64,000 bases of DNA. Origin: an uncultured Clostridia bacterium (lineage in GTDB: Bacteria > Bacillota > Clostridia > Christensenellales > UBA1242). The first letter of the stretch is position 1, and every line of letters begins with the position of its first letter. The stretch spans positions 14,065 through 78,064 of the forward strand of contig CATLHJ010000003.1 of the NCBI GenBank assembly GCA_949949035.1, read 5' to 3'. The position numbers and the translations under genes were made by a program. Below the pieces are notes generated by a model. That model did not search any database. It was not told where the DNA came from and saw only the letters and a list, made by a program, of their open reading frames with translations. Positions 4,158-35,980 of the stretch are shown piece after piece.

Positions 4158-4166
4158 GGAGTACCC

Positions 4167-6575
4167 ATGAAAAAAACGCTGAAAATGATTGGTTTGTACC
4201 TGCTGGTCACCTTGGTAGTGGCGGCGGGGGTAATTTTTTTGGTACCCACTCCGGTCAATGCCCATAACGAAGATTGGCAAGACCCCCTGCCCCCCGAACC
4301 GGACAACCATTTACTGGACATCGTCGGCAACCTAATGAATCTACACGACTTTAACGTGGACGCCGACTTGGCGATCACTACCGGTGGACAAACCATTGCC
4401 GTGGACGCCACCGTCGATCTGCAAGCCACCGACGGGTTTACCGACGTTGCAGTGGCGGGTGACGTCGCGGTCACGATTAACGACTTTAACGCCGCGTTGC
4501 ACGTAACCTACTGGGACAATACCCTTTACGCGGACTACAACAACTTGCACTTATCGGCCGACCTAAACGCCTTACTGGACGGCTTGCCCACCATACTGGG
4601 TTGGTTCGGTGTTGATTTCACCCTGCCTGACACGTCTAACTTGGACGTTAACGCCATTTTGGCGTTGCTGGAAGCCTATACGGAAACCGACAACGGCAAC
4701 GGTTACGACATCGTACTGACGGTAGCGGGTTGCGACCTGCAATTAACCTGCGACCACAACTTTAATTTACAACGGGCAGTAATTCCGGGGCTAACCCTGG
4801 GTGACACCACGCTTAAGGGGGCAATTACCCTAACCGTTTACGCCACCCCCTTGGCCATTACGGTACCGGATGTGGCTTACGTGAACGTACCGCAACTGGT
4901 TAAAATGTTTACTGACTTAATGCCTACCTTTAATCAACCATTTACCATCGCCGGCAATGCGACCTTGTTCGCCACCGTCGACGGCGTACGCCAAGCCGAC
5001 AACTATTTGACCGCAGATTTAGGACGACTGGCGGTGATGACCCGTAACGGACTGCTGGACCAACTGGCAATCGACCTTGCCGTTAACGGTGCCGGCGAAT
5101 TATTTGCCAATCAATTAAGCGGTCGTGCACTAAACCTAGGTGCCTACTTCAACAGCGACAACACCGACGGCGGGGTTTACATTAACTTTGACGGCCTGAA
5201 ATTGTTCTGCGGGAAAGCCGACTTGGCCGACACCTACGCCGCGTTACAAAGTTTGTTGGCCTTGTTCGTCCCTGACGAAATTATGCAATACACCAACCTG
5301 TTCTACTTCAACGACCACAACGATATGGTGTTCGACACCACCGTGTTACAAAACTTAATGGGCAACTTGACCGCCGACGACATCGTGCCGATGCTTACCA
5401 AGTATTTACCGTACCTGCAAGATTTAACCTTGGACGCCGACAACCAATTGACCTTGACGGTGACCGACCCCCAAGGCGGTTTCGCCGTAACCGTAACCTT
5501 GTTCCCCGCCGCCGACGGCATTTACCATTTGACGGTTGAATGTAACTTGGCGGAACAACAACGCGCCCTTACCGCCAACTTCACCTTAACGACCTTGGAC
5601 AGTGTGGTGGGTGTGCCTGCCGACGCCGACGTCAACAACGACCATGCGCCCTACTACAACGTTTCCAGCATCGACAACTTGTTAAACGCGGTTAACAATA
5701 CTGTGCGTTACCAAGAATTTTACTTCACGGGTACGGTCGGTGTCAGCATCAATCTTTTAGGTAAAGATATTCCCGTGGACGTTCCCGTAGAAATTGCCAT
5801 CAATAACACTGACCCCGCACGCGGCTTGGTGGTGGCGGCACACTTCGCGTTACCGTACGATAACTTAACTTCCATCGCTATTGGTAATTTACGTTTGCTC
5901 GATTCCGCGCCCAGTGCCGCGGGTAAAACCCAAAAAGGTACTCGCGACTTGTACCTGTACTACCAACAAGGCAACATTTACCTGTACCGCACCGAACAAG
6001 TGAAAATTAGTGGCAAGTGGCTGTGGAGCGACCCAGTCTATTCTGGCAGTTACGAAAAAGCGGTCAAATTAACCATGGCGGAATTTACCGACGACGCCTT
6101 GAATTGGTTGTTAAAATGGGGCTTCGGTTTCAGCGACACCATTATGAACCCGATTACCGACGCCATCGCCAACGGTGCGACTAACACTGCCCCCTTGGAT
6201 TACGGTAACGTAGTCCACGGTTTCAGCAACACCGACGGCCGTTACGACATTGTGTTAAACTTAGGCGAAATTACCCGCAACCCCGACCTAAAAGATTTCA
6301 CCGTCAGCGTCACCACCGCCGACCGCGACGGCCAAACCGTGGTCACCAACGTGGGACTGGATATGCAGGTCGATGTCGGCGTTAAAATTGTTTTACAAAC
6401 CCGTGACAACGACGACGGCAGCAAAGGCTTGAAATTGTCTTTGGGCGACGGCGTTGCGGACATCACCACCGCCACCGAACGCATGACCATGATTAACGAC
6501 CGCTATGCCGCAATGCCCCTTGCCGACGGTCAAACTTATTACGAAACCATCAAAGGCAACTGGCAAGCCGCCTAA
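4167..6575 (+). CDS. hypothetical large exported or membrane-anchored protein
   Basis: 802-aa ORF with GGAG RBS. N-terminal TM or signal helix. D/N/T/L-rich with almost no cysteine. No recognisable catalytic motifs. Confidence 0.65.
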   Translation: MKKTLKMIGLYLLVTLVVAAGVIFLVPTPVNAHNEDWQDPLPPEPDNHLLDIVGNLMNLHDFNVDADLAITTGGQTIAVDATVDLQATDGFTDVAVAGDVAVTINDFNAALHVTYWDNTLYADYNNLHLSADLNALLDGLPTILGWFGVDFTLPDTSNLDVNAILALLEAYTETDNGNGYDIVLTVAGCDLQLTCDHNFNLQRAVIPGLTLGDTTLKGAITLTVYATPLAITVPDVAYVNVPQLVKMFTDLMPTFNQPFTIAGNATLFATVDGVRQADNYLTADLGRLAVMTRNGLLDQLAIDLAVNGAGELFANQLSGRALNLGAYFNSDNTDGGVYINFDGLKLFCGKADLADTYAALQSLLALFVPDEIMQYTNLFYFNDHNDMVFDTTVLQNLMGNLTADDIVPMLTKYLPYLQDLTLDADNQLTLTVTDPQGGFAVTVTLFPAADGIYHLTVECNLAEQQRALTANFTLTTLDSVVGVPADADVNNDHAPYYNVSSIDNLLNAVNNTVRYQEFYFTGTVGVSINLLGKDIPVDVPVEIAINNTDPARGLVVAAHFALPYDNLTSIAIGNLRLLDSAPSAAGKTQKGTRDLYLYYQQGNIYLYRTEQVKISGKWLWSDPVYSGSYEKAVKLTMAEFTDDALNWLLKWGFGFSDTIMNPITDAIANGATNTAPLDYGNVVHGFSNTDGRYDIVLNLGEITRNPDLKDFTVSVTTADRDGQTVVTNVGLDMQVDVGVKIVLQTRDNDDGSKGLKLSLGDGVADITTATERMTMINDRYAAMPLADGQTYYETIKGNWQAA

Positions 6576-7798
6576 TAGTTTTCTGGCAAATCGTTCAGTA
6601 ACAACAACACGTCCCCCGCACTAAGCAGCGACGGGTAAAAGGCTTTGGCGGCGTCGCGGGTGGCGGCGTAAAAGACGGGTTTGCCCCACCCCGTTAAACC
6701 TTGGGTGAAAGCGTCACGATTGAGCGTACCGACCACAATCACCGCGTCGGCGACGTTTTTAATTTGCGTGCACAACGTGGCGTGGGCGGTCGCCGTGTTA
6801 TCGCCCTGCTCCACGAAACCGGGGGTCTGCACCACTTTGCGGGTGGCGTAAGTGCCCAACACGGCTAACGCACTGGCCGCACTGACGGGATTCGCGTTAT
6901 AACTGTCGTCCAAAATGATAATGCCGTTTGGGGCAACTATTGGTTGCAGCCGGTGCGCGGTCGGTGCTAAATTGGCCACCGCGGTTTTCAGGTGGTCGTC
7001 GCTGATACCTAGTTTCCGCGCCACCGCCACCGCCAACGCGATGTTGGTTTGGTTATGCGCGCCCAATAACGGCGTGGCGAAGTGTTCCGCACCGCCCCGC
7101 ACTAAAGTTAAACGGGGGTGTTTTAATTGCCGACACCACGGATTATCACCGTCAGTAACCGCAATTCCGTCGTCAGGCAGTGCCGCGAACAGTTCGGCTT
7201 TGGTTTGCGCCACCGTAGCCACATCGCCTAAGGTCGCCAAGTGGCAGGCGCCAATACTGGTAATAATTCCGTGGCGCGGGTGGCACAAGTCACACATTTC
7301 ACGGATGTCACCCACGTGACGCGCGCCCATTTCCATAATTAAAATTTGGGTATCGGGGCGCAGGTGTTCGTTCACCGTGCGCGCCAAGCCTTGCGGAGTG
7401 TTAAAACTGGCGGGACTGCTGACCACACGGTATTGGGTACTTAACAAAGCCGCCAAAATATTTTTGACCGACGTTTTGCCGTAACTACCGGTCACACCAA
7501 TGACCATCAAGTCGGGACGGTGGCGCAAGGTGCGTACCGCGCGACGCACGTACCGCCGTCTGTTCGCCGCTTCCCACGGGGTCAGAAGCGTGTTGGCGCA
7601 AGCCACGGTGTGGGCTAACCCAAGGTACGGCAGTCCCAACCCCAAAATCACTAACGCCCACGTCATAACACGTAACCGACGCAAGCGCGCGGTTGGGTTG
7701 GCCGTACCCGTGGTGGTTTTTGCCACCAACGCCCAGTAGTCGCGGTTAACGTAACCGACTAATTGCATTTTGTACAGCAACTCGTTCATGCTAACCAC
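6572..7798 (-). CDS. murF: Mur ligase, MurF-like (UDP-MurNAc-tripeptide--D-Ala-D-Ala ligase) with atypical N-terminus
   Basis: P-loop GVTGSYGKTSVKN and DDSYNANP motif. The N-terminal roughly 90 aa contain a hydrophobic helix instead of the usual MurF N-domain. Confidence 0.7.
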   Translation of the reverse strand: MVSMNELLYKMQLVGYVNRDYWALVAKTTTGTANPTARLRRLRVMTWALVILGLGLPYLGLAHTVACANTLLTPWEAANRRRYVRRAVRTLRHRPDLMVIGVTGSYGKTSVKNILAALLSTQYRVVSSPASFNTPQGLARTVNEHLRPDTQILIMEMGARHVGDIREMCDLCHPRHGIITSIGACHLATLGDVATVAQTKAELFAALPDDGIAVTDGDNPWCRQLKHPRLTLVRGGAEHFATPLLGAHNQTNIALAVAVARKLGISDDHLKTAVANLAPTAHRLQPIVAPNGIIILDDSYNANPVSAASALAVLGTYATRKVVQTPGFVEQGDNTATAHATLCTQIKNVADAVIVVGTLNRDAFTQGLTGWGKPVFYAATRDAAKAFYPSLLSAGDVLLLLNDLPENY

Positions 7799-8433
7799 TC
7801 CCGCACGTCCTTAATAAAACGGGCTTGGTTAGTTAAGTAGGCAAAATGCCCGTGTTCGCGGTAGACTATGCCCACCGCCCCTGGTACTAACTTTTGCCAA
7901 CGGCGTAGCATGCTGACCGGCGTCGCGGTATCCCGTTGTCCCCAAATTAACAGCAATGGGGCTTTAATTTGGGCAATTTCCGCGGACAAGTCGCGGTGAA
8001 TAATGTTTTGAAAGGTCGCTTTCCCGTCATCGTCCAGATTGCGGTAATCGGCACTGCCCCCGTGTGACGGTAAGCCCAAAGCCCGTTTCAATTTATGCAG
8101 GCGGATTTTTGCCCACGTCCACAAGTTAAACCGTGGTGGTAACCCTGCCCCACCGGTTACCACAATTTTGCTAAACAGGTCGGGATGTGCGGCGTTGAGG
8201 ACGGCCATGACCCGCGCGCCGAACGAGTGGGCAATCACCGCACAACGGGTCACGTGCTGTTGCCGCAAATATTGCCACAGGTCGCGGGCGTAATCGTCCA
8301 GTGTGTACACCACCCCCGCGGGCGGACAAGGCAGAGCGGGCGTCAGTACGTTGTAATCACGGCGGAAATAATCGGCCACCCCCGCGAAACTGCGGGCGTC
8401 GCCGCCCCAACCATGCAAAAACAATAAGGTCAT
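7786..8433 (-). CDS. alpha/beta-fold hydrolase
   Basis: LFLHGWGGD oxyanion region, nucleophile elbow AHSFGA, and a C-terminal H in EHGHFAY. Confidence 0.7.
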   Translation of the reverse strand: MTLLFLHGWGGDARSFAGVADYFRRDYNVLTPALPCPPAGVVYTLDDYARDLWQYLRQQHVTRCAVIAHSFGARVMAVLNAAHPDLFSKIVVTGGAGLPPRFNLWTWAKIRLHKLKRALGLPSHGGSADYRNLDDDGKATFQNIIHRDLSAEIAQIKAPLLLIWGQRDTATPVSMLRRWQKLVPGAVGIVYREHGHFAYLTNQARFIKDVREWLA

Positions 8434-8473
8434 AACCTTATATATGCGGGTAGGTTAACCGTGTTTATGCGCC

Positions 8474-8851
8474 TTAACCGTTTTTGTTACAAATAAACTC
8501 GCCGTTATAAAACGGTGTCACAGTAAACGCGTTAACCGTGTCGCCGCTTTGGTATTTACGCATGGCCAAAGCCACGTCCAACCCGTTTTGCAGTTCAATA
8601 ATGGGGATTTGCCCAACGTAGGCGTACGCTTTCGCCACCGCCAAGCCCACCCGAATGCCCGTCCACGAGCCGGGACCGGTCACCACCGCCACTGCGTCAA
8701 AGTGGTCCACCCCCAATTCCTTAATTAGCGGATTGATATTTTTGTCGTGTTGGCGCTGTTCGTGGCAAGTCTTGGTCACGGTAATTTTGCCGTCCACGGC
8801 CAAGGCCACGGTCAAAGTCGGTTGGGTACTGTCAAGCAATAATAAATTCAC
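8474..8851 (-). CDS. tsaB: tRNA t6A biosynthesis protein TsaB, half-length (N-terminal domain only)
   Basis: GPGSWTGIRVGLAVAKA motif. Only 125 aa. Overlaps the tsaE stop by 20 nt. Confidence 0.65.
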   Translation of the reverse strand: MNLLLLDSTQPTLTVALAVDGKITVTKTCHEQRQHDKNINPLIKELGVDHFDAVAVVTGPGSWTGIRVGLAVAKAYAYVGQIPIIELQNGLDVALAMRKYQSGDTVNAFTVTPFYNGEFICNKNG

Positions 8852-9239
8852 GGTCGCCGTTCTCCTTTACTTTAATCGTTACGTTGATTGCGTCGGGGCA
8901 ACCAATGGTCCCTGGCCACTCGATCAACACAGTGTTACCGGGCACGGTTAAGTCCCACAGTCCCACGTTCGCGACAGCCCGCTCAAAATCTAAATTGATG
9001 GGGTAGTCGGCGAGCAAGCGGTACAAATCGGCGTGGTACAGGTGGTCGTTATATTGGTTAATAATGGTGAAGGTCGGGCTGCACGGAACCGCGGTCGGGT
9101 CCAACTCCTTAACTATGGCCGCGGCCAAGGTGGTTTTGCCCGCGCCCATGGGGCCGTTTAACAACACTACCCCGCCGTTACTTTGGCGCAGCCGGTGGGC
9201 TAACTGTTTCGCTACGGTGCGGGTCAGGTTTTGGTTCAC
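8832..9239 (-). CDS. tsaE: tRNA t6A biosynthesis ATPase TsaE
   Basis: LNGPMGAGKTTLAAAI P-loop, SPTFTIINQY and HADLYRL motifs. Confidence 0.85.
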   Translation of the reverse strand: MNQNLTRTVAKQLAHRLRQSNGGVVLLNGPMGAGKTTLAAAIVKELDPTAVPCSPTFTIINQYNDHLYHADLYRLLADYPINLDFERAVANVGLWDLTVPGNTVLIEWPGTIGCPDAINVTIKVKENGDREFIIA

Positions 9240-9699
9240 ACGCTATTGTAGCAGATTTCGGCGGTGGTGCAAAGCGACTGATGGCCGCCAAGGTAAAAAT
9301 AATCCCCGCCACCACAACGTAGTAGATGTTCAAATTAACGACCCAACTCATCAGCAATAAAATTATGCCCGCCCACACGTAGCCTTTGGTGCGTTCCCGA
9401 CTAAACGCCCGTTGCCACCAAACTTTAAGCACGTCCTTAATTTTACGGCGCGGACGGCGGGGCGCGGCCTTTAATTGTCGCCAATACTTACGACCGATGG
9501 TCAGTTCGTAAACGGCATTGATACCCACACTAACCAGCAACGCCCACCACCAACGCCGGGTTACCAAATACCCCACGACGTAGAGAAAAAAGCCCCGCAC
9601 CACAATGTCCATTACGTACGCTACCCGATTCATTAAATTTATTATTGACAAGGACACTGCCAGACCGCATACTAACATGAAAAAAAATTTTTTACACAA
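9178..9699 (-). CDS. hypothetical membrane protein
   Basis: 173-aa ORF with several TM helices and a Pro-rich tail. The start is uncertain (TTG at 9699 or ATG at 9678). Its 3' end overlaps the tsaE start by 62 nt. Confidence 0.5.
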   Translation of the reverse strand: MCKKFFFMLVCGLAVSLSIINLMNRVAYVMDIVVRGFFLYVVGYLVTRRWWWALLVSVGINAVYELTIGRKYWRQLKAAPRRPRRKIKDVLKVWWQRAFSRERTKGYVWAGIILLLMSWVVNLNIYYVVVAGIIFTLAAISRFAPPPKSATIACEPKPDPHRSETVSPPAAPK

Positions 9700-9717: not shown

Positions 9718-11151
9718 GTGGCCAAAGTTAATAACGAGAAAATCATCGAGTTAAAAAACATCACGAAAATTTACGACCAAGAAAAGGTAGTGGAAGACGT
9801 GTCGTTGGCCATTCATGCCGGCGACTTTGTGACGATCTTGGGACCTTCGGGTTGCGGCAAAACCACCCTGTTGCGCATGATTGCGGGCTTTGAAAAACCG
9901 ACCCAGGGTACGATTTTGTTACAAGGCGTGGACGTCACCAACGTGCCACCCTATAAACGTAACATTAACACGGTGTTCCAAAAGTACGCTTTGTTTCCGC
10001 ACTTAAACGTGTTTAACAACGTTGCCTACGGCCTGAAATTAAAGAAAGTTCCGGACGCAACCGCCAAAAAGGGTTACCGGTTGCTGTCCACCACGGAAAT
10101 CAAAGACAAAGTCAACGCCGCGTTAACTATGGTAGATTTAGCCGACTACGGCCACCGCGACATCGACAGTCTGTCGGGCGGACAACAACAACGGATTGCT
10201 ATTGCCCGCGCGTTAGTTAACGAGCCCAAAGTTTTATTGTTGGACGAACCATTATCGGCGTTAGATTTGAAAATGCGCAAGGAAATGCAACTGGAACTGC
10301 GCCGTTTACACCACGAATTGGGCATTACCTTTATTTACGTAACCCACGACCAAGAAGAAGCCATGACCATGAGTGACACCATCGTTGTCATGCGCGACGG
10401 AGTAATCCAGCAGGTTGGCACCCCAAAAAAAATATACGACGAACCGCAAAACGCTTACACCGCGGATTTCATTGGCGAAAGTAACATTATTTCCGGCAAA
10501 ATGTTAAAAGATTACCAAGTTGAATTTTTCGGCACCCAGTTCGCGTGTTTGGACAAAGGTTTCGGCAAAAACGAACCCGTGGACGTGGTGGTGCGTCCGG
10601 AAGACGTAAAGATTAACAAAGCCGATCCGCAAATAGCGGGCAAAGTCATCAGCAGTGTGTTCAAAGGTACTTTTTACGACCTGACGGTACTGGTGGGCGA
10701 TTACGAATTGTCGGTCAAAAACACGCGCGATTACGCGGTGGGCACACCGTTGAATTTAACCATTTTGCCCGACGGGATTCACATTATGCGCAAAGAAGCC
10801 TTAACCAACGCCTACCACACGGTAATCACCGGCGAAAATACGGTAGCCATTGGCGACGTGGACTTTGCGTTTGTCCCGACCGCCGGCGAACAGTTTAACA
10901 AGGGCGACGCGGTGGTGGCCGTGATTGACTTCGACAAAATTGAACTGACCGATGACGAAAAGGAAGGCCAAATTGGTGGCAGCATCAGTGACCTGATTTA
11001 CAAGGGTCGTTACTACCAAGCCAAAGTTTGGTTAGATAACGATACGGCGTTAATCGTCGATACGCCTTACGAATGGGACGCCGACGACCGCGTCGGTTTG
11101 AAAATTAACCAAGCAGACATAAAGGTACGTCACGATGAAGAAGCCAAGTAA
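9718..11151 (+). CDS. potA: spermidine/putrescine ABC transporter ATP-binding protein
   Basis: Walker A GPSGCGKTT, signature LSGGQQQR, Walker B LLLDEPLSALD. Long C-terminal regulatory extension. GTG start. Confidence 0.85.
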   Translation: MAKVNNEKIIELKNITKIYDQEKVVEDVSLAIHAGDFVTILGPSGCGKTTLLRMIAGFEKPTQGTILLQGVDVTNVPPYKRNINTVFQKYALFPHLNVFNNVAYGLKLKKVPDATAKKGYRLLSTTEIKDKVNAALTMVDLADYGHRDIDSLSGGQQQRIAIARALVNEPKVLLLDEPLSALDLKMRKEMQLELRRLHHELGITFIYVTHDQEEAMTMSDTIVVMRDGVIQQVGTPKKIYDEPQNAYTADFIGESNIISGKMLKDYQVEFFGTQFACLDKGFGKNEPVDVVVRPEDVKINKADPQIAGKVISSVFKGTFYDLTVLVGDYELSVKNTRDYAVGTPLNLTILPDGIHIMRKEALTNAYHTVITGENTVAIGDVDFAFVPTAGEQFNKGDAVVAVIDFDKIELTDDEKEGQIGGSISDLIYKGRYYQAKVWLDNDTALIVDTPYEWDADDRVGLKINQADIKVRHDEEAK

Positions 11152-11932
11152 CTTTAACCGTCGTAGTTTATTTGCTTTGCCGTACTGGTTGTACATGACC
11201 GTTTTCGTAGTGGTTCCGTTGTTAATGTTGTTGTTTTTTGCGTTCTACAACAACGGTCACGGTTTTTCCTTTGCCGAAGTAACCAAGTACTTTACGGACA
11301 GCAGTCAATGGGCCACCATCGGTCGCAGTTTGCGGATTGCCTTTTTGGCGGCGATGCTGTGTCTGTGCCTTGGTTACCCGCTGGCGTACCTGATTGCCAA
11401 AATCAAGTCGCAAAAATTGCAATACCTGACTTTGATGGCTTTGGTCGCCCCCATGTGGATTAACGGACTGCTGCGCACCATTGCCCTGAAAGACTTAACT
11501 ACCCTGCTGGGTTGGGCGGCGGGCGAAGACCTGTTAATCTTGGGGCTAACCATTGATTATCTGCCGTTCATGATTATGCCGACTTACTTGGTGATTACCG
11601 GTATCCCACGGTCGTATTTAGAAGTCAGTGCCGATTTGGGCGCGCACCCCGTCACGACTTTTTTCAAGGTCGAATTACCTTTGTCCATGGCGGGGCTAAT
11701 CAGTGGTTTTTTGATGGTCTTTACCCCCGCGGTGTCGACCTACTACATGAGTGAATATTTGGGCGACCAAAGCACTTTCATGATTGGCGAACAATTAAAC
11801 ACCATGTTTATCAAAGACAACAAGTCGGGAGCGGCCGTGATTGCTTTGGTACTGTTGGCGATTGTCGGCTTGTCGGTCGTGTTAACCAACGCGTTATCAC
11901 GACTGGGTAACCGGCGGGGAGGATTGTACTGA
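11135..11932 (+). CDS. potB: spermidine/putrescine ABC transporter permease
   Basis: 265 aa and polytopic. EAA-like loop EVSADLGAHPVTTFFKVELP. Overlaps the potA stop. Confidence 0.75.
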   Translation: MKKPSNFNRRSLFALPYWLYMTVFVVVPLLMLLFFAFYNNGHGFSFAEVTKYFTDSSQWATIGRSLRIAFLAAMLCLCLGYPLAYLIAKIKSQKLQYLTLMALVAPMWINGLLRTIALKDLTTLLGWAAGEDLLILGLTIDYLPFMIMPTYLVITGIPRSYLEVSADLGAHPVTTFFKVELPLSMAGLISGFLMVFTPAVSTYYMSEYLGDQSTFMIGEQLNTMFIKDNKSGAAVIALVLLAIVGLSVVLTNALSRLGNRRGGLY

Positions 11933-14217
11933 TGGCGGCGATTTTTATTTTGTTAGTGTTGGCGGTACTTTATTTGCCCGTATTGTTACTGGTCTTTTTG
12001 TCGTTCAGTGACGGCCTGCAATACTATACCGAACTGTTTACCAACGCCCACTACCTGCAAGCCATTGGCAACACCTTGTTGATTGCGGTGGTGGCGTCCC
12101 TGATTGCCACCATAATCGCGACGATGGCGGCCACTGGCATTATTTATTTGGGAAAAAAATCCCGCGCTATTACCATGGCCGTTAACCAATTACCCATCGT
12201 TAACGCCGACATTGTTACGTCGTTTGCGTTAGTGTTGCTGTTCGTCGGTTTAGGCTTGAACAACTTTGGTTTGTTGAAATTGATTTTGGCGCACGTGTTA
12301 ATTGCCCTGCCGTTTTGTTTACTCACCATTTTACCCAAGTTACGCCAACTGGACGCCAATTTGATTGACGCGGCGCTAGACTTGGGGGCGACGCCCATGA
12401 AAGCCTTTACCAGTGTCATCGTGCCCCAACTGGTACCGGCTATGGTGCAAGCGTTCCTGCTGGGTTTCACCCTGTCGCTGGACGACTTCGTCATTACCCA
12501 ATACAACAACAGTGGCGTCCCTACCATTGCCACGGTGGTGTACGGTGCCATCAGCCGTCGCGACATTCCCAACGCGTTTAAGGCCTTAACCACCATTATT
12601 TTGGCGGTCATTATTATCGTGTTAATCATCATGAACGTGCGCATGGGACGGGTACGCCAAGGCAAAAAGTTGAGTAAAAAAGTCGTTGCCATCATTACCG
12701 CGGTGGTCATTTTGCTGGCAGGTGGCGGTATCGTACCGTTAATTGTTCATAACTTAACGCCCCGCAGTTCGGTGTTAAAAATTTATAACTGGGAAGACTA
12801 CATTGCGATTCCGTCCGACGGCGAAGGGCGGGACTTGGTCGCCGAATTTGAAGCGTACTACCGCGCCCAAACGGGTGATAAAAATTTCCGTGTCGAATAC
12901 CACACTTTCACCGACAACGAAGAACTGTACTCGAAAATTAAGACCCAACGTGCGGATTACGACCTGATTTTTCCGTCCGAATACTTGGTCGAAAAAATGG
13001 CGGGCGAAAACTTGTTACAAACCATTAAGTTAGACCAATTAGACGCGGACGTGGTCGCGGGGTTAGACGCCGCTATCTTATCCCGTACCACAGACTACAC
13101 CGCCGTCACCGCGGATGGTGCGGTCGATCCCAACCAAGTGTGGGCGATTCCCTACATGGTGGGCACGGTCGGTATTATGTACGATACCGATGTCATCAAC
13201 GGCATGGCGACAAAAACCGGAATTGACACCACCACTTTCGAGCAGATGTTGTCGGAACTGGGCTTCGGCGTGCTGTTCGGCGCCAAGTACACCGACGCCA
13301 CGACGGGCACCACCTACGACAGCAGTAAATTTAAGAGCCACATTACCATGAAAAAGTCTGCCCGCGACAGTGTGGGCATTGCGATGTTGTACGCGCAAGC
13401 GGCCCGCATTCGGGACAGCATTACTGCCCACCAAGCCCAAGGTGGCACGGCGGATGACTTCGACAATACGGAATTATCGAACATCTTAAATATGCAAGAC
13501 CAATTCACCATTGACCAAGCCCGCCAAATTTTACAAGAACAAATCCGCGTCATGAACCCGTTTTATGAAAACGATAACGGCAAAAAAGCCTTCGCTAACC
13601 CCAACGACACCCGCTTTGCTTACGGTCTATTTTGGAGTTGCGACGCGGGCTTGACCATGGGCGAAAATGTGGACGATAATGATGAGCAATTAACTAACTT
13701 AAAATTTTACGCCCCCTACGGTACCAACTTGTGGACGGACAATTTTGCCCTGCCCATCTACGGAAAAAACACGGACGCGGCCTACGCCTTTATGAACTTT
13801 ATGTTGGACGCGGATAACGCCGCCGCCAACATCGATTACGTAGGCAGCCAAATGGCCGTGGCTGGTCAAGACGCGGACGGTAATAACACCGCGGTCGGCG
13901 ACCTAAAAGACGATTACGGCTTCGACGAAAACGCCGACGACTTCTCCTATGACAACAGTTACGTCAACGCGGTGTTCCCGCCGGAGTACGCGTTGACTTA
14001 CTCGGCGATTATGCATAACTTCGACCCCGTACAGGAAACGGCGGTCAACGACCTGATGGTCAGCATTCAAAACCAAGCCGCGCAACTGACGGAAAACACC
14101 CACGGCAGCCCCCAAGTTATCCAATGGGTGTTCTTGGCGTTAGTATTGGCGGGCGTGGTCGTGGCGGTGGTTTATTGTGTAAGCCACCGGCGTCCCCAAA
14201 CTCCACCCGTTAACTGA
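11932..14217 (+). CDS. fused ABC permease (PotC-like) and polyamine-binding protein (PotD-like) with C-terminal TM helix
   Basis: The N-terminal roughly 260 aa are a permease (DAALDLGATPMKAFTSVIVP). The remainder is PotD-like (LKIYNWEDYI, FPSEYLVEKM). Terminal hydrophobic helix VIQWVFLALVLAGVVVAVVY. Confidence 0.75.
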   Translation: MAAIFILLVLAVLYLPVLLLVFLSFSDGLQYYTELFTNAHYLQAIGNTLLIAVVASLIATIIATMAATGIIYLGKKSRAITMAVNQLPIVNADIVTSFALVLLFVGLGLNNFGLLKLILAHVLIALPFCLLTILPKLRQLDANLIDAALDLGATPMKAFTSVIVPQLVPAMVQAFLLGFTLSLDDFVITQYNNSGVPTIATVVYGAISRRDIPNAFKALTTIILAVIIIVLIIMNVRMGRVRQGKKLSKKVVAIITAVVILLAGGGIVPLIVHNLTPRSSVLKIYNWEDYIAIPSDGEGRDLVAEFEAYYRAQTGDKNFRVEYHTFTDNEELYSKIKTQRADYDLIFPSEYLVEKMAGENLLQTIKLDQLDADVVAGLDAAILSRTTDYTAVTADGAVDPNQVWAIPYMVGTVGIMYDTDVINGMATKTGIDTTTFEQMLSELGFGVLFGAKYTDATTGTTYDSSKFKSHITMKKSARDSVGIAMLYAQAARIRDSITAHQAQGGTADDFDNTELSNILNMQDQFTIDQARQILQEQIRVMNPFYENDNGKKAFANPNDTRFAYGLFWSCDAGLTMGENVDDNDEQLTNLKFYAPYGTNLWTDNFALPIYGKNTDAAYAFMNFMLDADNAAANIDYVGSQMAVAGQDADGNNTAVGDLKDDYGFDENADDFSYDNSYVNAVFPPEYALTYSAIMHNFDPVQETAVNDLMVSIQNQAAQLTENTHGSPQVIQWVFLALVLAGVVVAVVYCVSHRRPQTPPVN

Positions 14218-29703: not shown

Positions 29704-29741
29704 AAAAAGTTACTTACATATTTACTTGTAAGTAACTTTTT
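29704..29741. promoter_or_regulatory. perfect 15-bp inverted repeat (operator-like) in a divergent promoter region
   Basis: aaaaagttacttaca-N8-tgtaagtaacttttt. Both flanking genes start here rather than end here. Confidence 0.5.
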
Positions 29742-30443: not shown

Positions 30444-31496
30444 ATGCAAATTACCCGTTTAGAATTACGCAACTTTCGTAACCACCGGCACACTACCCTG
30501 AACTTGGCGCCGGGGGTCAACGTGTTGGTGGGTGCCAACGCTCAAGGTAAAACCAACCTGTTGGAAGCCATTTATCTGGCTTGCGTGGGACGGGGTTGGC
30601 GCACTTCCCGTGACCGCGAAATGGTGCAATTTGGGGCGGACAGTGCCTGGGTCAATGTCACTGCGCAAAAGCGTTGTGGCACGGTCGAAATTGCTATTCA
30701 TTTAGGCACAGGGCAAAAAAAGGCGATTGCCGTCAACGGCATCCCCATCAGCAAGGTGGCCGAGTTAATGGGACAAATTAACTGCGTCTTCTTTTCGCCA
30801 GACGAACTTAAAATGGTGAAGGAAGCCCCCGCCGACCGCCGGCGTTTCCTGAACATTGACCTTTCGCAACTGGACAAAACCTACTTTTACGCGTTAACCC
30901 GCTATAACAAAATTTTGGCGGAGCGCAACGCGTACTTGAAAACCAACGGCGACCCACGAGAACTGGCGATTTGGGACGAGCAATTAGTCAAGGTCGGCGA
31001 CATCATTATCGCCAAGCGACGCGCGTTTTTGAACCAATTAACCCCGTTAATCATTGCTCAACACCACGCGTTAACCGGCGGACAGGAAAACCTTACCGTT
31101 CAGTACGAAACGGTGCAAAACTTCGCAAAAAACTTGGCGGCAGCCCGCGCCCGCGACCAACAATTACGCACCACCACGGTGGGACCACACCGCGATGACC
31201 TTGCCATTAAAATTAACGGCCAAGACGTCCGCCTGTACGGCAGTCAAGGGCAACAACGCACCGTCGCCCTGTCAATCAAATTAGCCGAGTTAACCTTATT
31301 CACCAAACTGACGGGCGAAACGCCGATTCTATTACTGGACGATGTATTCAGCGAATTAGATAGCAATCGTCAGGCGAGACTGCTAACTACCATTGCAGCG
31401 GCACAAACGGTAATTACCGCCACCGAAGCACCCGCGGTCGGGGAAATTTTTACCATTCACCACGGGCAAGTTGTTTCCCCAGCACCGGTTAGTTAA
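30444..31496 (+). CDS. recF: DNA replication and repair protein RecF
   Basis: LELRNFRNH, Walker A GANAQGKTNLLEAI, GPHRDD, GSQGQQRT signature, and LLLDDVFSELD. Confidence 0.9.
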   Translation: MQITRLELRNFRNHRHTTLNLAPGVNVLVGANAQGKTNLLEAIYLACVGRGWRTSRDREMVQFGADSAWVNVTAQKRCGTVEIAIHLGTGQKKAIAVNGIPISKVAELMGQINCVFFSPDELKMVKEAPADRRRFLNIDLSQLDKTYFYALTRYNKILAERNAYLKTNGDPRELAIWDEQLVKVGDIIIAKRRAFLNQLTPLIIAQHHALTGGQENLTVQYETVQNFAKNLAAARARDQQLRTTTVGPHRDDLAIKINGQDVRLYGSQGQQRTVALSIKLAELTLFTKLTGETPILLLDDVFSELDSNRQARLLTTIAAAQTVITATEAPAVGEIFTIHHGQVVSPAPVS

Positions 31497-32056
31497 AGCG
31501 AGAAACTGTTGCCAACCGCGCTTAACAGTTGCGACATAATCGGGAAGATATGATTTTTGAAAAAATCAAACAAATAGGGGGCGAAGTAACCGCCACTGGC
31601 TGGCGTTAACTGCAAGGCACTGGCCAAGCCCAAACCATCAATCAACATAAACAGAATGGTTAATTCCATGCCCGTTACCAAAATACCGAACACGAACCCA
31701 AACAGGTGGTCCAATACGTTAACCGTCTTGACACGTTCTTTTACGAACGCCAATAACTTATCCACCAAAATTAACAGCAAGCGCACCGCCAAGAACAAAC
31801 CGATAGCGGTCATAATAAACAGCAAGGTCTGGGGCGTCACCACCGGCACGTTCCATTTAGCAATCTGTTCACACCAACCGAATTGGCGGTCTAACCACCC
31901 CGCCAGTGGGCCAGACGCAAAGATCACCACCAACAACGACACGAACGTCGACGCATACTTCAGTACGCTACGCAAAAAACCACGCACCGTACAAATTAAC
32001 GTAATGACCACAATAAATAACGCAATAACGATGTCCGCAATCAGGCCGGCGGTCAT
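31493..32056 (-). CDS. CvpA-family membrane protein (tentative)
   Basis: 187 aa with four TM helices. The N-terminal pattern IADIVIALFIVVITLICTVRGF resembles CvpA. Confidence 0.5.
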   Translation of the reverse strand: MTAGLIADIVIALFIVVITLICTVRGFLRSVLKYASTFVSLLVVIFASGPLAGWLDRQFGWCEQIAKWNVPVVTPQTLLFIMTAIGLFLAVRLLLILVDKLLAFVKERVKTVNVLDHLFGFVFGILVTGMELTILFMLIDGLGLASALQLTPASGGYFAPYLFDFFKNHIFPIMSQLLSAVGNSFSL

Positions 32057-32160
32057 AATTGGCGTCCCCCTTTTCTCTACCGTTATTATAGCCCAGTCAC
32101 ACCCATTTTGTCAAGGTCAACCGTCACGCTTACCTAACCTTTTTCACTTGTCAACCCAAT

Positions 32161-32420
32161 TGTTTAACGTTAAACATTTTTGTAATCAGCAAACCGCTCA
32201 CTAGATTGTCGTAAGGCACAGCCATTGTTCAACGTTAAATATTTTTGTAATCAGCAAATCGTCCACTAAATTATCGCAAGGCACGGCCATTGTTTAACGT
32301 CAAACATTTTCGTAATTAACCAACCGTCCACTAGATTATCGCAAAACACGGCCATTGTTTAACGTTAAACACCTTCGTAATCAGCAAATCGTCCACTAGA
32401 TTGTCGTAAGGCACGGTCAT
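32161..32420. repeat. left array: four tandem 65-bp iterons, each starting with a parS-like 16-mer
   Basis: Units start at 32161, 32226, 32291 and 32356. The 16-mers are TGTTTAACGTTAAACA (perfect at 32161 and 32356), TGTTCAACGTTAAATA and TGTTTAACGTCAAACA. The 49-bp remainder of each unit is also conserved. Confidence 0.95.
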
Positions 32421-32864
32421 CCTTCGTGTGGCAAAACCTTAAAAATAGAGCAAGTGGTGGCAGTTACTTACAAAGCAACGGTTAATAACTCACGGCACAC
32501 TACTGCGACCGGCGACAAAGCGTTTGGCCGTTTGACAATTCGGCTTTGGAATTGAGTATGCCAACCGTCAAAACAGGCCGTCAAGCAAGACCATTTTCGC
32601 GTTCCCGTTGGGATTGCGTCGCGGACGTCATTATTCGCCCCGCGTCCAACAAAACACTGTCATCTCCACTATTCATCCCAATTATCTTGCGCGCAGTGAC
32701 CAATTTGCCGTCGCGCCGCAATGTTTTTTCCCAACCCTTTAATTGTTGACGGCTAAACCAATGACGCAATTTACTAAATTTACCCCGCATCATGCCACCA
32801 CCAGTTCAACCAGCGTTCCGCGCAAAGCGCAAGCCAATTTTTCATCCTTGCCGATCATCAACCA

Positions 32865-32893
32865 ATTATAACCGATTGCCGTCCACAATGCAA
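32865..32893 (-). promoter_or_regulatory. sigma-70-like promoter between the iteron arrays, pointing toward lower coordinates
   Basis: The minus strand reads TTGCAT, 17 nt, TATAAT (plus-strand atgcaa at 32888-32893 and attata at 32865-32870). Confidence 0.45.
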
Positions 32894-32903
32894 GTCGGCA
32901 AAT

Positions 32904-33113
32904 TGTTTAACGCTAACTATCGTTTGGCCTTACGCTTACCAAGTAAGCAGTTTACCAATTACGCAAATGTTTAACGTTAAACAATGACCGTGCCTTACGA
33001 TAATCTAGTGGACGGTTTACTGATTACAAAAATGTTTAACGTTAAACAATGGATGTGCCTTACGATAATTTAGTGGACGGCTTGCTGATTACAAAAATGT
33101 TTAACGTTAAACA
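32904..33113. repeat. right array: inverted copies of the 65-bp iterons
   Basis: Perfect TGTTTAACGTTAAACA at 32968, 33033 and 33098 (65-bp spacing) plus a degenerate TGTTTAACGCTAACTA at 32904. The inter-palindrome sequence is the reverse complement of the left-array units. Confidence 0.95.
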
Positions 33114-33137
33114 ATTTGGGGAGTACCCGAAAAATGT

Positions 33138-33166
33138 TTGCCCTTTAACGTAAAAAAACGTAAAAT
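33138..33166 (+). promoter_or_regulatory. sigma-70-like promoter immediately upstream of parB
   Basis: TTGCCC, 17 nt, TAAAAT. The -10 element ends 7 nt before the parB ATG and no Shine-Dalgarno is visible. Confidence 0.4.
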
Positions 33167-33173
33167 ATAGAAT

Positions 33174-34079
33174 ATGGCAGAAAAAAAAGGATTGGGGCGG
33201 GGACTGGAAGCCTTACTGGGTGGCTTTGCGTTAGACGACGAATTAACCCCCTTGCCCGATGACCGACCGACCGCAACAACGGACACGAATACAGATCACG
33301 GCGTGGAAACCTTGTTGGTCAGCATGATCGACAATAACGTTAACCAACCGCGTAAAACTTTCGACCCCGTGGCCTTGCGGGAACTGGCGGAAAGTATTAA
33401 GGAGTACGGGGTCATCCAACCCATTTTGGTTACACCCGTAGGTAACCGCTTTATGATTGTGGCGGGAGAACGGCGCTGGCGTGCCGCCAAAATGGCGGGA
33501 TTGGTAGAAATCCCCGCGGTAATTAAAAAGTTTAACCACAAACAAATTGACGAAATTGCGATTATCGAAAACTTGCAACGTGACGACTTAAACGATATTG
33601 AATTGGCCATGGGCATTAAACGCTTAATGGACGAACACCACTTGACCCAAGAAAAGGTTGCTGAACGTTTGGCTAAACCGCGCAGCACGATCGCCAACAC
33701 TTTGCGCCTAATTACCTTGCCACCGGCGGTGCAGACTTTAATCAGTAACCGCCAACTGACCGCGGGACACGCGTTACGTTTGTTAAGCGTGACCGACCCC
33801 GCCCAACAGATTAAGTACGCCGAACGGGCCGCCGCCGAAAATTTGTCGGTGCGCGCACTGGGCGAACTGATTGACGGCAAGTTTGCGGGGCTGCCTAAAA
33901 GTGCGGTCAAGCCAACTAAACTGCCCGAAATTCGTGAACAGGAAAAAATTTTGTCCCGCGCAATCGGCACCAAGGTTAAAATTGACGGCGATTTGACCGC
34001 GGGCAAGGTGGTTATCGCCTACCACGCGGCGGAAGAATTGGAACGGATTGTTAATTACTTAAAAAAACACAATATCTAG
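33174..34079 (+). CDS. parB: ParB/Spo0J-family chromosome partitioning protein
   Basis: KGLGRGLEALL, IQPILV, GERRWRAAKMAG (the arginine-patch ParB box) and the HTH LTQEKVAERLAKPRSTIANTLRL. Confidence 0.9.
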   Translation: MAEKKGLGRGLEALLGGFALDDELTPLPDDRPTATTDTNTDHGVETLLVSMIDNNVNQPRKTFDPVALRELAESIKEYGVIQPILVTPVGNRFMIVAGERRWRAAKMAGLVEIPAVIKKFNHKQIDEIAIIENLQRDDLNDIELAMGIKRLMDEHHLTQEKVAERLAKPRSTIANTLRLITLPPAVQTLISNRQLTAGHALRLLSVTDPAQQIKYAERAAAENLSVRALGELIDGKFAGLPKSAVKPTKLPEIREQEKILSRAIGTKVKIDGDLTAGKVVIAYHAAEELERIVNYLKKHNI

Positions 34080-34146
34080 TGGCCTGCCAGCAAGTTGGCG
34101 TACTATATATAGTGTTTTATCCGCCAAAGTGGCAGTTAAAACCATC

Positions 34147-34175
34147 TTGAACAAAAAAGCGTGGTATGGTATACT
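34147..34175 (+). promoter_or_regulatory. sigma-70-like promoter for parA
   Basis: TTGAAC, 17 nt, TATACT, followed by an AAAGGAG RBS. Confidence 0.45.
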
Positions 34176-34202
34176 CAAATACCAGCGAAAGGAGAACGGA
34201 AA

Positions 34203-34970
34203 ATGGGTAAAGTAATAGCCTTTACGAATCAAAAGGGCGGGGTGGGTAAAACCACAACCTGTATTAACCTGTCGGCCTATTTAGCCCAGTTGGGTAAAAA
34301 AGTGTTGATTATCGACATGGACCCCCAAGGCAACGCGACCAGTGGGGTGGGCATCGTTAAGCAACCCAAAATGGCGACGGTGTACAGCGTAATGTGTGAC
34401 CAAGTGGATGCGACCGACGCCATTCAGTTAACCGCGATTAAGGGCTTGGAAATTTTGCCCGCGACGGTGGACTTGGCGGGCGCGGAAATCGAATTAGTCC
34501 GCATGAGTGGCCGCGAACAAATTTTGAAACACGCGGTGGAAAGAATTAAAGACAGTTACGACTTCGTGTGCATTGACTGCCCACCCAGTTTAGGTTTGTT
34601 AACCGTTAATTCGCTGACCGCCGCCGACAGCATTATCATCCCGATCCAGTGCGAATTTTTTGCGTTGGAAGGGGTCAGCCAGTTAATCAATACGGTGCGC
34701 TTAATTAAAAAGCAGGGCCTGAACCCGCACATCGACATCGAAGGCGTGTTAACCACCATGATGGTGCGCAGCAGTTTAACCGAACAGGTCAACGCCGAAG
34801 TGCTGAAATTCTTCGGGCGTAAGGTGTTTAATACCAAAATTCCCCGCAACGTGCGTTTGGCAGAAGCCCCCAGTCACGGGCAACCCATTTGCCTGTACGA
34901 TAACAAATGTTCGGGTGCCAAGGCTTACCGCGAATTGGCGTACGAATTTATGAAGAGGCAACCCAAATGA
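34203..34970 (+). CDS. parA: ParA/Soj-family ATPase
   Basis: Deviant Walker A NQKGGVGKTTT, IDMDPQGNAT, and DCPPSLG. ATG at 34203. Confidence 0.92.
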   Translation: MGKVIAFTNQKGGVGKTTTCINLSAYLAQLGKKVLIIDMDPQGNATSGVGIVKQPKMATVYSVMCDQVDATDAIQLTAIKGLEILPATVDLAGAEIELVRMSGREQILKHAVERIKDSYDFVCIDCPPSLGLLTVNSLTAADSIIIPIQCEFFALEGVSQLINTVRLIKKQGLNPHIDIEGVLTTMMVRSSLTEQVNAEVLKFFGRKVFNTKIPRNVRLAEAPSHGQPICLYDNKCSGAKAYRELAYEFMKRQPK

Positions 34971-35980
34971 ACCCTGCCGTAAAATCGTTTTATCGGGTCT
35001 ACCGTCCGCAGAACTTTGACGCGGTGGGGGGGCAAGAATTTGTCACCAAAACCTTGGCTAACCAAATTGCCACCAACAAAATCGGGCACGCTTATTTGTT
35101 TTGTGGGACACGCGGCACCGGCAAAACCACGGTGGCGAAAATTTTTGCGCGCGCGGTAAACTGCGAACATTTTCACGACGGTAAAGTTTGCGGGCAGTGT
35201 GCGTGGTGTAAAAGTCCCAACCAAAACATGGACATTTTTGAAATTGACGCCGCCAGTAATAACGGGGTGGACGCGGTACGGGACTTGGTGGACAGCGTTA
35301 AATACCCACCGGTCGTGGGACGCTACAAAGTCTACATTATCGACGAGGTGCACATGTTTTCGGGCTCCGCGTTTAACGCGTTATTAAAAACTTTGGAAGA
35401 ACCGCCCGCCCACGTGATTTTCATTTTGGCGACCACCGAACCGCACAAGTTGTTACCCACGGTACAAAGCCGCTGCCTACGCTTTAACTTCCAAAATGTG
35501 GCTTTGCCCGACATTATTAAAGTGGTGCAAGGCGTGTTCAAAAAAGAAAAGTTGACCGCCGACGACGCAGCCCTGACCGCGATTGCCAAGGAAGGACGGG
35601 GCAGTGTACGTGACGCGTTATCCTTTGCCGATACGGTCGCGGCCTACTGCGCGGGCGAACCGATTACCGTGGCCAAGATTAACCAAATTGTTGGGGGGGT
35701 AGACGCTACCGTTTTTGCCCGGTTAGTCCAACAAATTACCGCCCACGACGCGGCGGGGGTGCGGAAAACCGTAGCGGACATTTTCGCGGTCGCGACGGGT
35801 GCTGACCGCTTGCTGACCGGCGTGTTGGACGCGATTAAGGACGCTTACGTGACGACACCGACCCCGCAACTGGCCAACACCCTGAAATTATTTGCCAACT
35901 TGGAACCAACCTTAAAGTACGCGACCGACCCGCACGGCTATTTTGAAACCGCGGCGCTGGTGGCTTGCGGAGCCAATTAA
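34967..35980 (+). CDS. dnaX: DNA polymerase III subunit gamma/tau, domains I-III only
   Basis: YRPQNFDAVGGQE, GTRGTGKTT, a Zn module CEHFHDGKVCGQCAWC, IIDEVHM, and TLEEPP. ATGA overlap with the parA stop. Only 337 aa. Confidence 0.9.
   Translation: MNPAVKSFYRVYRPQNFDAVGGQEFVTKTLANQIATNKIGHAYLFCGTRGTGKTTVAKIFARAVNCEHFHDGKVCGQCAWCKSPNQNMDIFEIDAASNNGVDAVRDLVDSVKYPPVVGRYKVYIIDEVHMFSGSAFNALLKTLEEPPAHVIFILATTEPHKLLPTVQSRCLRFNFQNVALPDIIKVVQGVFKKEKLTADDAALTAIAKEGRGSVRDALSFADTVAAYCAGEPITVAKINQIVGGVDATVFARLVQQITAHDAAGVRKTVADIFAVATGADRLLTGVLDAIKDAYVTTPTPQLANTLKLFANLEPTLKYATDPHGYFETAALVACGAN

Follow-up and report, generated by a model that had tools for sequence, protein, structure and literature searches.

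What is the 16-bp palindrome that recurs upstream of parB in an uncultured Clostridia bacterium, and is it a centromere site? The window analysed here is the whole stretch of 64,000 nucleotides from contig CATLHJ010000003.1. It carries a parB-parA pair preceded by eight copies of the palindrome TGTTTAACGTTAAACA, which resembles parS, a DNA element that ranks among the best-conserved protein-binding sites of bacteria. Canonical parS was favoured by 17/17 ParBs from diverse clades in a systematic test (PMC7383237). The palindrome departs from it at two symmetric positions. Comparison with related and unrelated genomes makes it likely that these palindromes serve as parS sites of a chromosomal ParB-ParA system, in a sequence variant specific to the lineage, and that the specificity of its ParB has shifted.

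A parS-like palindrome is clustered upstream of parB

A first-pass annotation of the locus had listed five perfect and three degenerate palindromes, and a motif scan recovered them all. Perfect copies lie at 32161-32176, 32356-32371, 32968-32983, 33033-33048 and 33098-33113; sites and arrays have no strand assigned. The degenerate copies are TGTTCAACGTTAAATA at 32226-32241 (2 mismatches), TGTTTAACGTCAAACA at 32291-32306 (1 mismatch) and a decayed site starting at 32904, which has 3 mismatches and an unrelated spacer. All eight are packed into 950 bp. At up to 3 mismatches TGTTTAACGTTAAACA has 9 matches in the window versus 1.3 expected, and the maximum over 100 shuffles was 5. It agrees with canonical parS, TGTTNCACGTGAAACA, at 14/16 positions and is the only parS-like sequence in the 64 kb. 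A search of the window for canonical parS at 1 mismatch or less gave no match; the best matches have 2 mismatches and are all the variant. The differences are C to A at position 6 of the 16-mer and the mirror change, G to T, at position 11.

The half-site of parS is numbered G1 T2 T3 T4 C5 A6 C7, and the Noc-binding site (NBS) has other bases than parS at positions 1 and 6 (PMC7383237). The variant differs from parS at position 5. Thus the first-pass annotation was right that the changed base is not one that separates parS from NBS, as it is C5 and not the G1 or A6 described by Jalal et al.

The palindromes form two arrays. Four 65-bp tandem units, each headed by a variant palindrome, make up the left array (32159-32420), which was detected by Tandem Repeats Finder at period 65 with 4.0 copies and 83% matches. 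The right array (32904-33115) is the reverse complement of the left one and contains the decayed and three perfect sites; the same program reported 2.6 copies with 90% matches at 32950-33115. The spacer of the site at 32968 has diverged by 37% from the unit consensus. Spacing had been described as exactly 65 bp, which holds throughout except for 64 bp between 32904 and 32968. The description of two inverted arrays around a core of about 480 bp was also borne out: arms of 190 nt are 85% complementary, the core measures 483 bp, and the last palindrome ends 60 bp ahead of the parB ATG at 33174. Neither the 65-bp unit nor further copies of the palindrome occur elsewhere in the window.

Other assemblies bear on the arrays. 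An ENA contig from a separate deposit (L017) is base-identical across 10.9 kb, though the two may be one assembly. In Logan, assemblies of the 88%-identical relative (L019) and of another strain of the window species (L127) stop inside the right-hand site group, 87 bp upstream of parB (1-87), as expected of a real repeat, which breaks short-read unitigs.

The adjoining genes encode ParB and ParA

The parB gene (33174-34079, plus strand) encodes a full-length ParB of 301 aa with ParB_N, HTH_ParB and ParB_C domains. Pfam matches are PF02195 (E = 8.6e-31), PF17762 (E = 5.5e-31) and PF23552 (31.4 bits, cut-off 23.8). ParB, Spo0J and Noc chains in the PDB match with E = 4e-48 to 1e-37. The protein has an N-terminal LGRGL motif, GERRWRA at residue 98, ENLQR at 132, a helix-turn-helix (HTH) and a C-terminal dimerisation domain. 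Downstream lies parA (34200-34970, plus strand), which encodes a Soj-type Walker ATPase with a KGGVGKTT motif (AAA_31, E = 1.2e-69). Its likely start is the ATG at 34200, which is preceded by AGGAGA; the mechanical open reading frame (ORF) begins at a GTG at 34161. By protein criteria the system is ParABS. Two defining sequence features of ParABS are absent, canonical parS and the conserved R204 contact, and these are considered in turn.

Variant and canonical sites exclude each other in the loci compared

In a library of 1.84 billion proteins the window ParB belongs to a clade that forms a single cluster at 50% identity, and the score falls from 357 to 255 bits at the first representative beyond it. 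The clade comprises about 95 clusters at 90% identity, each at least 55% identical to the query. Ten clade loci with 192 kb in total, or 10-64 kb of visible DNA per genome, were compared. They are the window and L018, L001, L020, L126, L125, L101, L102, L124 and L103, whose ParBs are 88, 75, 73, 72, 68, 61, 59, 59 and 55% identical to the window protein, respectively. The sources are labelled 'Clostridia', 'Eubacteriales' or 'Christensenellaceae', and taxonomy is given here by these depositor labels. L001 (JAMPCO010000013.1) is labelled 'MAG: Prevotella sp.', and it has clade synteny and a ParB 75% identical to that of the window. Because the synteny is of the Clostridia type, the label is probably a binning or labelling error.

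Each of the 10 clade genomes has 3-8 copies of the variant 16-mer, which lie between cvpA and parB, next to that syntenic intergenic region or within parB. The start of one site is invariably 37-101 bp (mostly 52-76 bp) upstream of the parB ATG, and the promoter-proximal site at 33098-33113 occupies this place in the window. The clade loci contain 37 perfect and 6 one-mismatch variant sites, compared with 0 perfect and 0 one-mismatch canonical sites. The reverse was observed in 96 outgroup ParB loci (563 kb), with 0 and 0 variant sites and 79 perfect and 28 one-mismatch canonical sites. The nearest outgroup, L104, whose ParB is 47% identical, has three perfect TGTTTCACGTGAAACA sites. Metagenomes were also scanned with the universal ParB peptides EIAIIENL and VAGERRWRA; among the matches listed there were only outgroup ParBs of 45% identity or less, which served as negative controls. 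By these counts the separation is strict: variant sites are confined to the clade and canonical sites to the outgroups. This result backs the first-pass proposal that the palindrome is a parS variant with shifted ParB specificity. No report of the 16-mer TGTTTAACGTTAAACA or its 12-mer core as parS was found in the literature searched.

Gene order also differs between clade and outgroup. All 10 clade genomes share the order recF, cvpA (minus strand), parB, parA, dnaX (window 30444-35980). In L104 the order is gidA-gidB-parA-parB-cvpA (3469-9683). The rearrangement of the par locus and the proposed specificity change fall on one and the same branch.

Sites inside parB are a feature of the distant clade members. 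Variant parS lies within the gene at about +340, where it encodes ..FNVKQI.., and at about +740 (L101 8347; L102 6662 and 7031; L103 8743; L124 8781). In the window parB the +340 position (33524-33543) keeps only a relic that has 4 mismatches. In L124, whose ParB (P0094) is 59% identical, the four sites (7394, 7505, 7900 and 8781) all have the asymmetric sequence TGTTTAACGATAAACA with one half-site TGTTTATC, which suggests spread by copying or further specificity drift at a position that distinguishes parS from NBS.

A DNA-contact arginine is replaced on the same branch

The contacts to parS that are conserved in both ParB and Noc are Q162, G170, K171, S172, N178 and R204 in Caulobacter numbering (PMC7383237). 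Alignment of the HTH region, a check that the first-pass annotation had proposed, placed Ile or Leu at the R204 equivalent and Arg at 205 in the clade. The gap-free HMMER alignment to the DNA-binding-domain chain of Caulobacter ParB (6S6H) pairs window L201 with R204 and window R202 with A205. Contact residues of the window ParB are A167 K168 P169 R170 ... G198 H199 A200 L201 R202. Within the contact set Q159, K168 and N175 are kept, and position G170 holds A/S/G, S172 P/T/N and R204 L/I in 93/93 aligned clade proteins. These are the members of the 95 clusters that are long enough to align, and all 93 have the motif [S/A/G]K[P/T/N]RS...GHA[I/L]RLL.

The outgroup motif GKSR...GHA(R/K) is present in 25/25 of the nearest outgroup proteins. 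Among the next 149 representatives at 50% clustering, position 204 is R or K in 116 of the 118 that were parsed, and none has Arg at 205. Two unrelated ParB representatives among these 149, P0198 (GHAVV) and P0239 (GHASA), lack R/K at the R204 position. The alignments show that an arginine which contacts DNA in ParB and Noc was substituted on the same branch as the site change.

One explanation of these data is that specificity was relaxed rather than switched. ParB would then still bind canonical parS well, the A/T change would be neutral drift fixed by duplication or gene conversion of a founder site, and the R204 change would be unrelated. Sites within one genome do tend to be identical, and the L124 sites, all TGTTTAACGATAAACA, look as if they spread by copying. 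Moreover, the ten genomes are phylogenetically nested, and the co-variation is therefore one evolutionary event, not ten. Relaxation has to contend with a variant that is invariant down to 55% ParB identity, including sites in parB coding sequence and sites with unrelated flanks. Canonical sites at 1 mismatch or less are also absent from the 192 kb of clade DNA even though they are dense around outgroup parB, and the residue changed on the same branch is a contact conserved in ParB and Noc. We give relaxed specificity a modest chance.

Positions that separate parS binders from NBS binders are R173, T179, A184 and G201 (Jalal et al., PMC7383237). A second explanation is that the protein is a Noc-like paralogue in the position that noc has in Bacillus, upstream of soj, and that the palindrome is a nucleoid-occlusion site. 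The parB-like gene is indeed followed by parA, as in noc-soj. However, the Noc residues Q173, K179, K184 and R201 are missing. The window has R170, T176, T181 and G198, which are of ParB type, and the window ParB is therefore not Noc-like. The site does not match the NBS TATTTCCCGGGAAATA, since position 2 is still G and position 7 still A. Noc begins with a membrane-targeting helix, unlike the window protein, whose N-terminus is the ParB-type MAEKKGLGRGLEALL. The gene after parA is dnaX and not spo0J, and the sites are clustered at the par locus rather than dispersed. A Noc-like role is very improbable.

The palindrome is conserved and the 65-bp unit is not

Two different elements could be under selection in the arrays, the 16-bp palindrome or the whole 65-bp unit that the first-pass annotation had regarded as an iteron. 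Within the window, mismatches to the unit consensus amount to 2.7% in the palindrome vs 12.8% in the spacer (Fisher p = 0.001), and by this measure the palindrome is shown to be under purifying selection. The tandem 65-bp unit was found in 0/9 relatives, so the expected iteron layout is not shared. Relatives keep the palindrome at spacings of 37, 51, 58-68, 76, 87-88 and 108-114 bp with unrelated spacers, which removes the basis for the iteron as a functional unit. Since the palindrome is conserved without its spacer and diverges more slowly, the 16-bp palindrome is the selected element.

Other properties attributed to the unit fared no better. A second binding partner had been proposed for the 49-bp spacer, which diverges about five times faster than the palindrome and has no significant match among the spacers of six relatives. 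Placement of the sites on one face of the helix does not follow from a 65-bp period, which is 6.2 turns and sets each unit about 70 degrees off the last; nor is the period conserved. Amplification had been called very recent. This is overstated, as the units differ from one another by 9-18% and one by 34%. Judged by these comparisons, the 65-bp units and their inverted layout arose incidentally, when segments were duplicated in tandem and in inverted form in this species, and have no functional period.

An oriented, asymmetric extended site was considered and rejected. Pooled clade sites give the symmetric consensus aaAW-TGTTTAACGTTAAACA-WTtt, and the apparent asymmetry in the window and L001 is duplication history.

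The two inverted arrays could also be terminal inverted repeats of a foldback element, of an element resembling a miniature inverted-repeat transposable element, or of an invertible segment. The unit could equally be dispersed and similar to repetitive extragenic palindromes (REP-like), and the resemblance to parS would be coincidental in each case. The 190-nt inverted arms enclose a 585-bp segment, and the core is mostly missing in relatives. On the other hand, the unit has no other copy in the 64-kb window, no transposase or recombinase ORF is present at the locus, and BLAST against plasmids and phages gave no match. Among 2.9 million viral contigs no array was found; the 16-mer occurs there 19 times singly and never clustered, and these occurrences are attributed to chance. 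The palindrome occupies the same syntenic position in ten genomes with differing flanks. An origin in a mobile or recombinogenic element is hardly credible, and we retain the reading of the palindromes as variant parS.

Genomic context of the locus

Judged by its neighbours, the locus is chromosomal, because recF, dnaX, ybaB, gltX, murB and spoIVB flank it. In the window recF (30444-31496) is followed by a minus-strand gene of the CvpA family (31493-32056), and then come the arrays, parB, parA, dnaX and ybaB. Downstream of ybaB lie genes for a class-I Glu/Gln tRNA synthetase (gltX) and a Sua5-family protein, then murB, with spoIVB further on. The recF and CvpA-family genes are convergent and their 3' ends overlap by 4 bp (31493-31496). 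In relatives the recF-cvpA gap instead carries an inverted-repeat hairpin.

Two insertions were seen in L102. A TMEM164-family gene lies between parB and parA (7323-8237), and dnaX is separated from ybaB by inserted phage-like genes (10351-12130), which have scaffold and minor capsid domains.

Replication-origin iterons were considered as an identity for the arrays and rejected because a Rep gene is absent. No Rep-like initiator ORF was found at the locus, where core ORFs are 70 aa or less and have no Pfam match.

Promoters and the core between the arrays

A putative parB promoter, TTGCCC-17 nt-TAAAAT (33138-33166, plus strand), was found by consensus scan. It is conserved in L018, and its -10 ends 7 nt before the ATG. 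No Shine-Dalgarno sequence precedes parB, and 5-7 nt separate the end of a -10-like hexamer from the ATG in the window (33138-33176), L018 (~5963-6003) and L001 (~4950-4988). This arrangement suggests that the parB mRNA may be leaderless. On the minus strand cvpA has a perfect TTGACA-18 nt-TATAAT promoter (32114-32085).

Because the last site is located about 25 bp upstream of the -35 element, the cluster would probably also autoregulate parB-parA, and it probably doubles as the operator of the predicted leaderless promoter. Could it be an operator array only? ParB or another repressor would then act on the cvpA promoter and the divergent parB-parA promoter, and the cluster would have no centromere role. 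The cluster does occupy the intergenic region between the two promoters, and one site is invariably found 37-101 bp before the parB ATG. Regulation and centromere roles coexist in known ParB systems, and hence such control is compatible with partition. ParB retains its motifs for hydrolysis of cytidine triphosphate (CTP) and for spreading, as well as a ParA-stimulating N-terminus, and parA adjoins. No alternative parS candidate is present in the visible DNA, and some clade members carry sites inside the parB ORF, like many canonical systems. An operator without a centromere role is unlikely, and a centromere that probably also serves as operator is the interpretation that we carry forward.

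The unique core (32421-32903, 483 bp, no strand assigned) is apparently non-coding. A protein-coding gene in it was rejected, since its only ORFs are 70 aa or less without a Pfam match. A 229-aa ORF between the site groups of L103 was likewise rejected as a gene; its start merely reads the palindrome (MFNVKQ), and it has no counterpart in other intergenic regions. Rfam and tRNA scans of the region gave no feature.

Core conservation in relatives is confined to a 39-nt element at 32452-32490 (plus strand), which is 92% identical to L018 and 86% to L020; the remainder has no counterpart. The element is a degenerate copy, without a stable hairpin, of a clade-specific inverted repeat AGTTACTTACAA-N5-TTGTAAGTAACT. 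The dispersed repeat has the form AGTTACTTACA(A/T)-N5-6-TTGTAAGTAACT, and its window copies are at 29708-29737 and 32462-32492. Further copies are found in L018 (3009 and 5678), L001 (3721), L020 (5040 and 5852), L126 (8861 and 9875), L125 (5358) and L101 (4992). With a strict scan of the arms, the 192 kb of clade loci yielded 10 distinct copies and 775 kb of outgroup loci yielded 0; the L020 copy at 5852 comes from a looser scan and lies outside this count. At 29708 the repeat forms a strong hairpin (-16.7 kcal/mol, z = -7.3) that lies between an A-run and a T-run. A conserved copy, 92% identical to L018, is found between the parS arrays and is degenerate and non-folding. Candidate identities for the repeat are a bidirectional terminator, a REP-like element and an operator.

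Comparison with known partition systems

Chromosomal ParABS systems, such as Bacillus subtilis Spo0J/Soj-parS and Caulobacter crescentus ParB-parS (PDB 6S6H/6T1F), are the closest match. They share with the window a three-domain ParB with GERRxRA and ENLQR CTPase motifs, an adjacent Soj-type ParA, and a 16-bp perfect palindrome with 14/16 parS positions and A/T-rich flanks. Their sites are likewise clustered at the par operon, in some clade members inside parB. In contrast, all clade genomes have A/T in place of C/G at site positions 6 and 11, and their ParBs carry Ile/Leu for R204, Arg at 205 and P/T/N for S172. The order parB-parA beside recF and dnaX differs from gidB-parA-parB in the nearest outgroup. 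Site density in the window is very high, with 8 in 950 bp.

Tandem direct repeats with one palindromic ParB-type site each, next to a partition operon, are known from the F plasmid, where sopC has 12 tandem 43-bp repeats with a 16-bp inverted repeat in each. The window arrays differ from sopC in being chromosomal, upstream rather than downstream of the operon, two in number and inverted, with a unit of 65 bp. By BLAST the window sequence has no similarity to any plasmid record. The first-pass annotation had pictured a plasmid-style iterated centromere on a chromosome. The chromosomal location and the tandem units with one palindrome each stand, and the plasmid link does not, given the missing plasmid match and a unit that is not conserved. 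As even the closest relative lacks the repeat unit, the unit reflects amplification and not a defined architecture.

Replicon-specific parS sites also exist on the secondary chromosomes of Vibrio cholerae (ParB2-parS2) and Burkholderia, beside a canonical primary system. There too ParB and site have co-diverged from universal parS. The clade variant differs in that it appears to be the sole, primary chromosomal system of its lineage, as seen in 10-64 kb per genome.

Noc-NBS, from nucleoid occlusion in Firmicutes, provides a precedent for a change in specificity (PMC7383237). There, as is proposed for the clade, a few interface residues, some of them outside the recognition helix, account for a palindromic ParB-family site that departs from parS at one or two symmetric positions. 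The details differ, since Noc changes bases 1 and 6 through residues 173, 179, 184 and 201, while in the clade base 5 changes and residues 204 and 205 (and 172) change. Unlike Noc, the clade protein keeps its ParA partner, a ParB-type N-terminus and clustered sites; therefore it is taken to be a centromere protein and not a paralogue. In KorB-OB, SopB-sopC and Helicobacter pylori Spo0J-parS, specificity contacts lie outside the HTH recognition helix (PMC5002424). The clade change is located in the helix after the HTH, a region that contributes base specificity in the systems covered there, although the proteins and sites are others.

Proposed mechanism and meaning

By homology, CTP-bound ParB dimers would nucleate at each TGTTTAACGTTAAACA, close as clamps and slide to flanking DNA. 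Eight sites within 950 bp would give a high local loading rate and a single compact partition complex, on which the Soj-type ParA would act via the N-terminal LGRGL peptide of ParB. Autoregulation of parB-parA would be exerted at the promoter-proximal site. The palindromic core would have no orientation for ParB, and array inversion would be duplication history. R204 would normally read the guanine paired with C5, and this contact would be lost or replaced once the pair became A:T. Ile/Leu at 204, possibly by contact with the thymine methyl group, and Arg at 205 may then have re-targeted ParB to A:T. Such re-targeting is plausible, as SopB, KorB and H. pylori Spo0J all draw part of their specificity from residues beyond the recognition helix (PMC5002424).

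Several points weigh against a parS cluster with shifted specificity. ParB is placed on the palindromes by comparison, and the nested ancestry of the ten genomes makes their agreement count once. A second canonical ParB or parS could be located elsewhere in the clade genomes, of which 10-64 kb each were seen. Position 172 changed as well (S to P/T/N), yet outgroups vary there too (S, N, K, D, E, P and others). The literature searched did not give the base that R204 contacts, and the proposed link of R204 to guanine(-5) is our own inference. The putative promoter and leaderless mRNA come from a consensus scan. As to proximity to oriC, recF and dnaX adjoin the locus, and no dnaA/dnaN, DnaA-box cluster or GC-skew switch was found within the 64-kb window. 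Even so, we regard the cluster as likely to be variant parS.

A broader proposal is that a whole lineage of uncultured Clostridia has re-coded its primary chromosomal centromere. This would be a third natural ParB/Noc specificity, in which the otherwise invariant contact arginine moved by one residue along its helix as GTTTCAC became GTTTAAC, and the pair would be orthogonal to the universal one. We lean towards this proposal by a little.

What does the finding mean for the ParB family? The 65-bp iteron layout is a species-level amplification of little importance. Pipelines that find parS with TGTTNCACGTGAAACA would score the genomes of the clade as lacking parS. If the pair is orthogonal, it may be an addition to ParB/parS DNA-labelling tools. 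The lineage singles out one residue pair, L201/R202 vs R/A. The comparisons point to a natural re-tuning of a near-universal bacterial centromere code. A lineage with a joint change of its primary site and of a 'universally conserved' contact residue would be a second natural case, independent of Noc, of how specificity can change at a symmetric interface while an essential function is kept.

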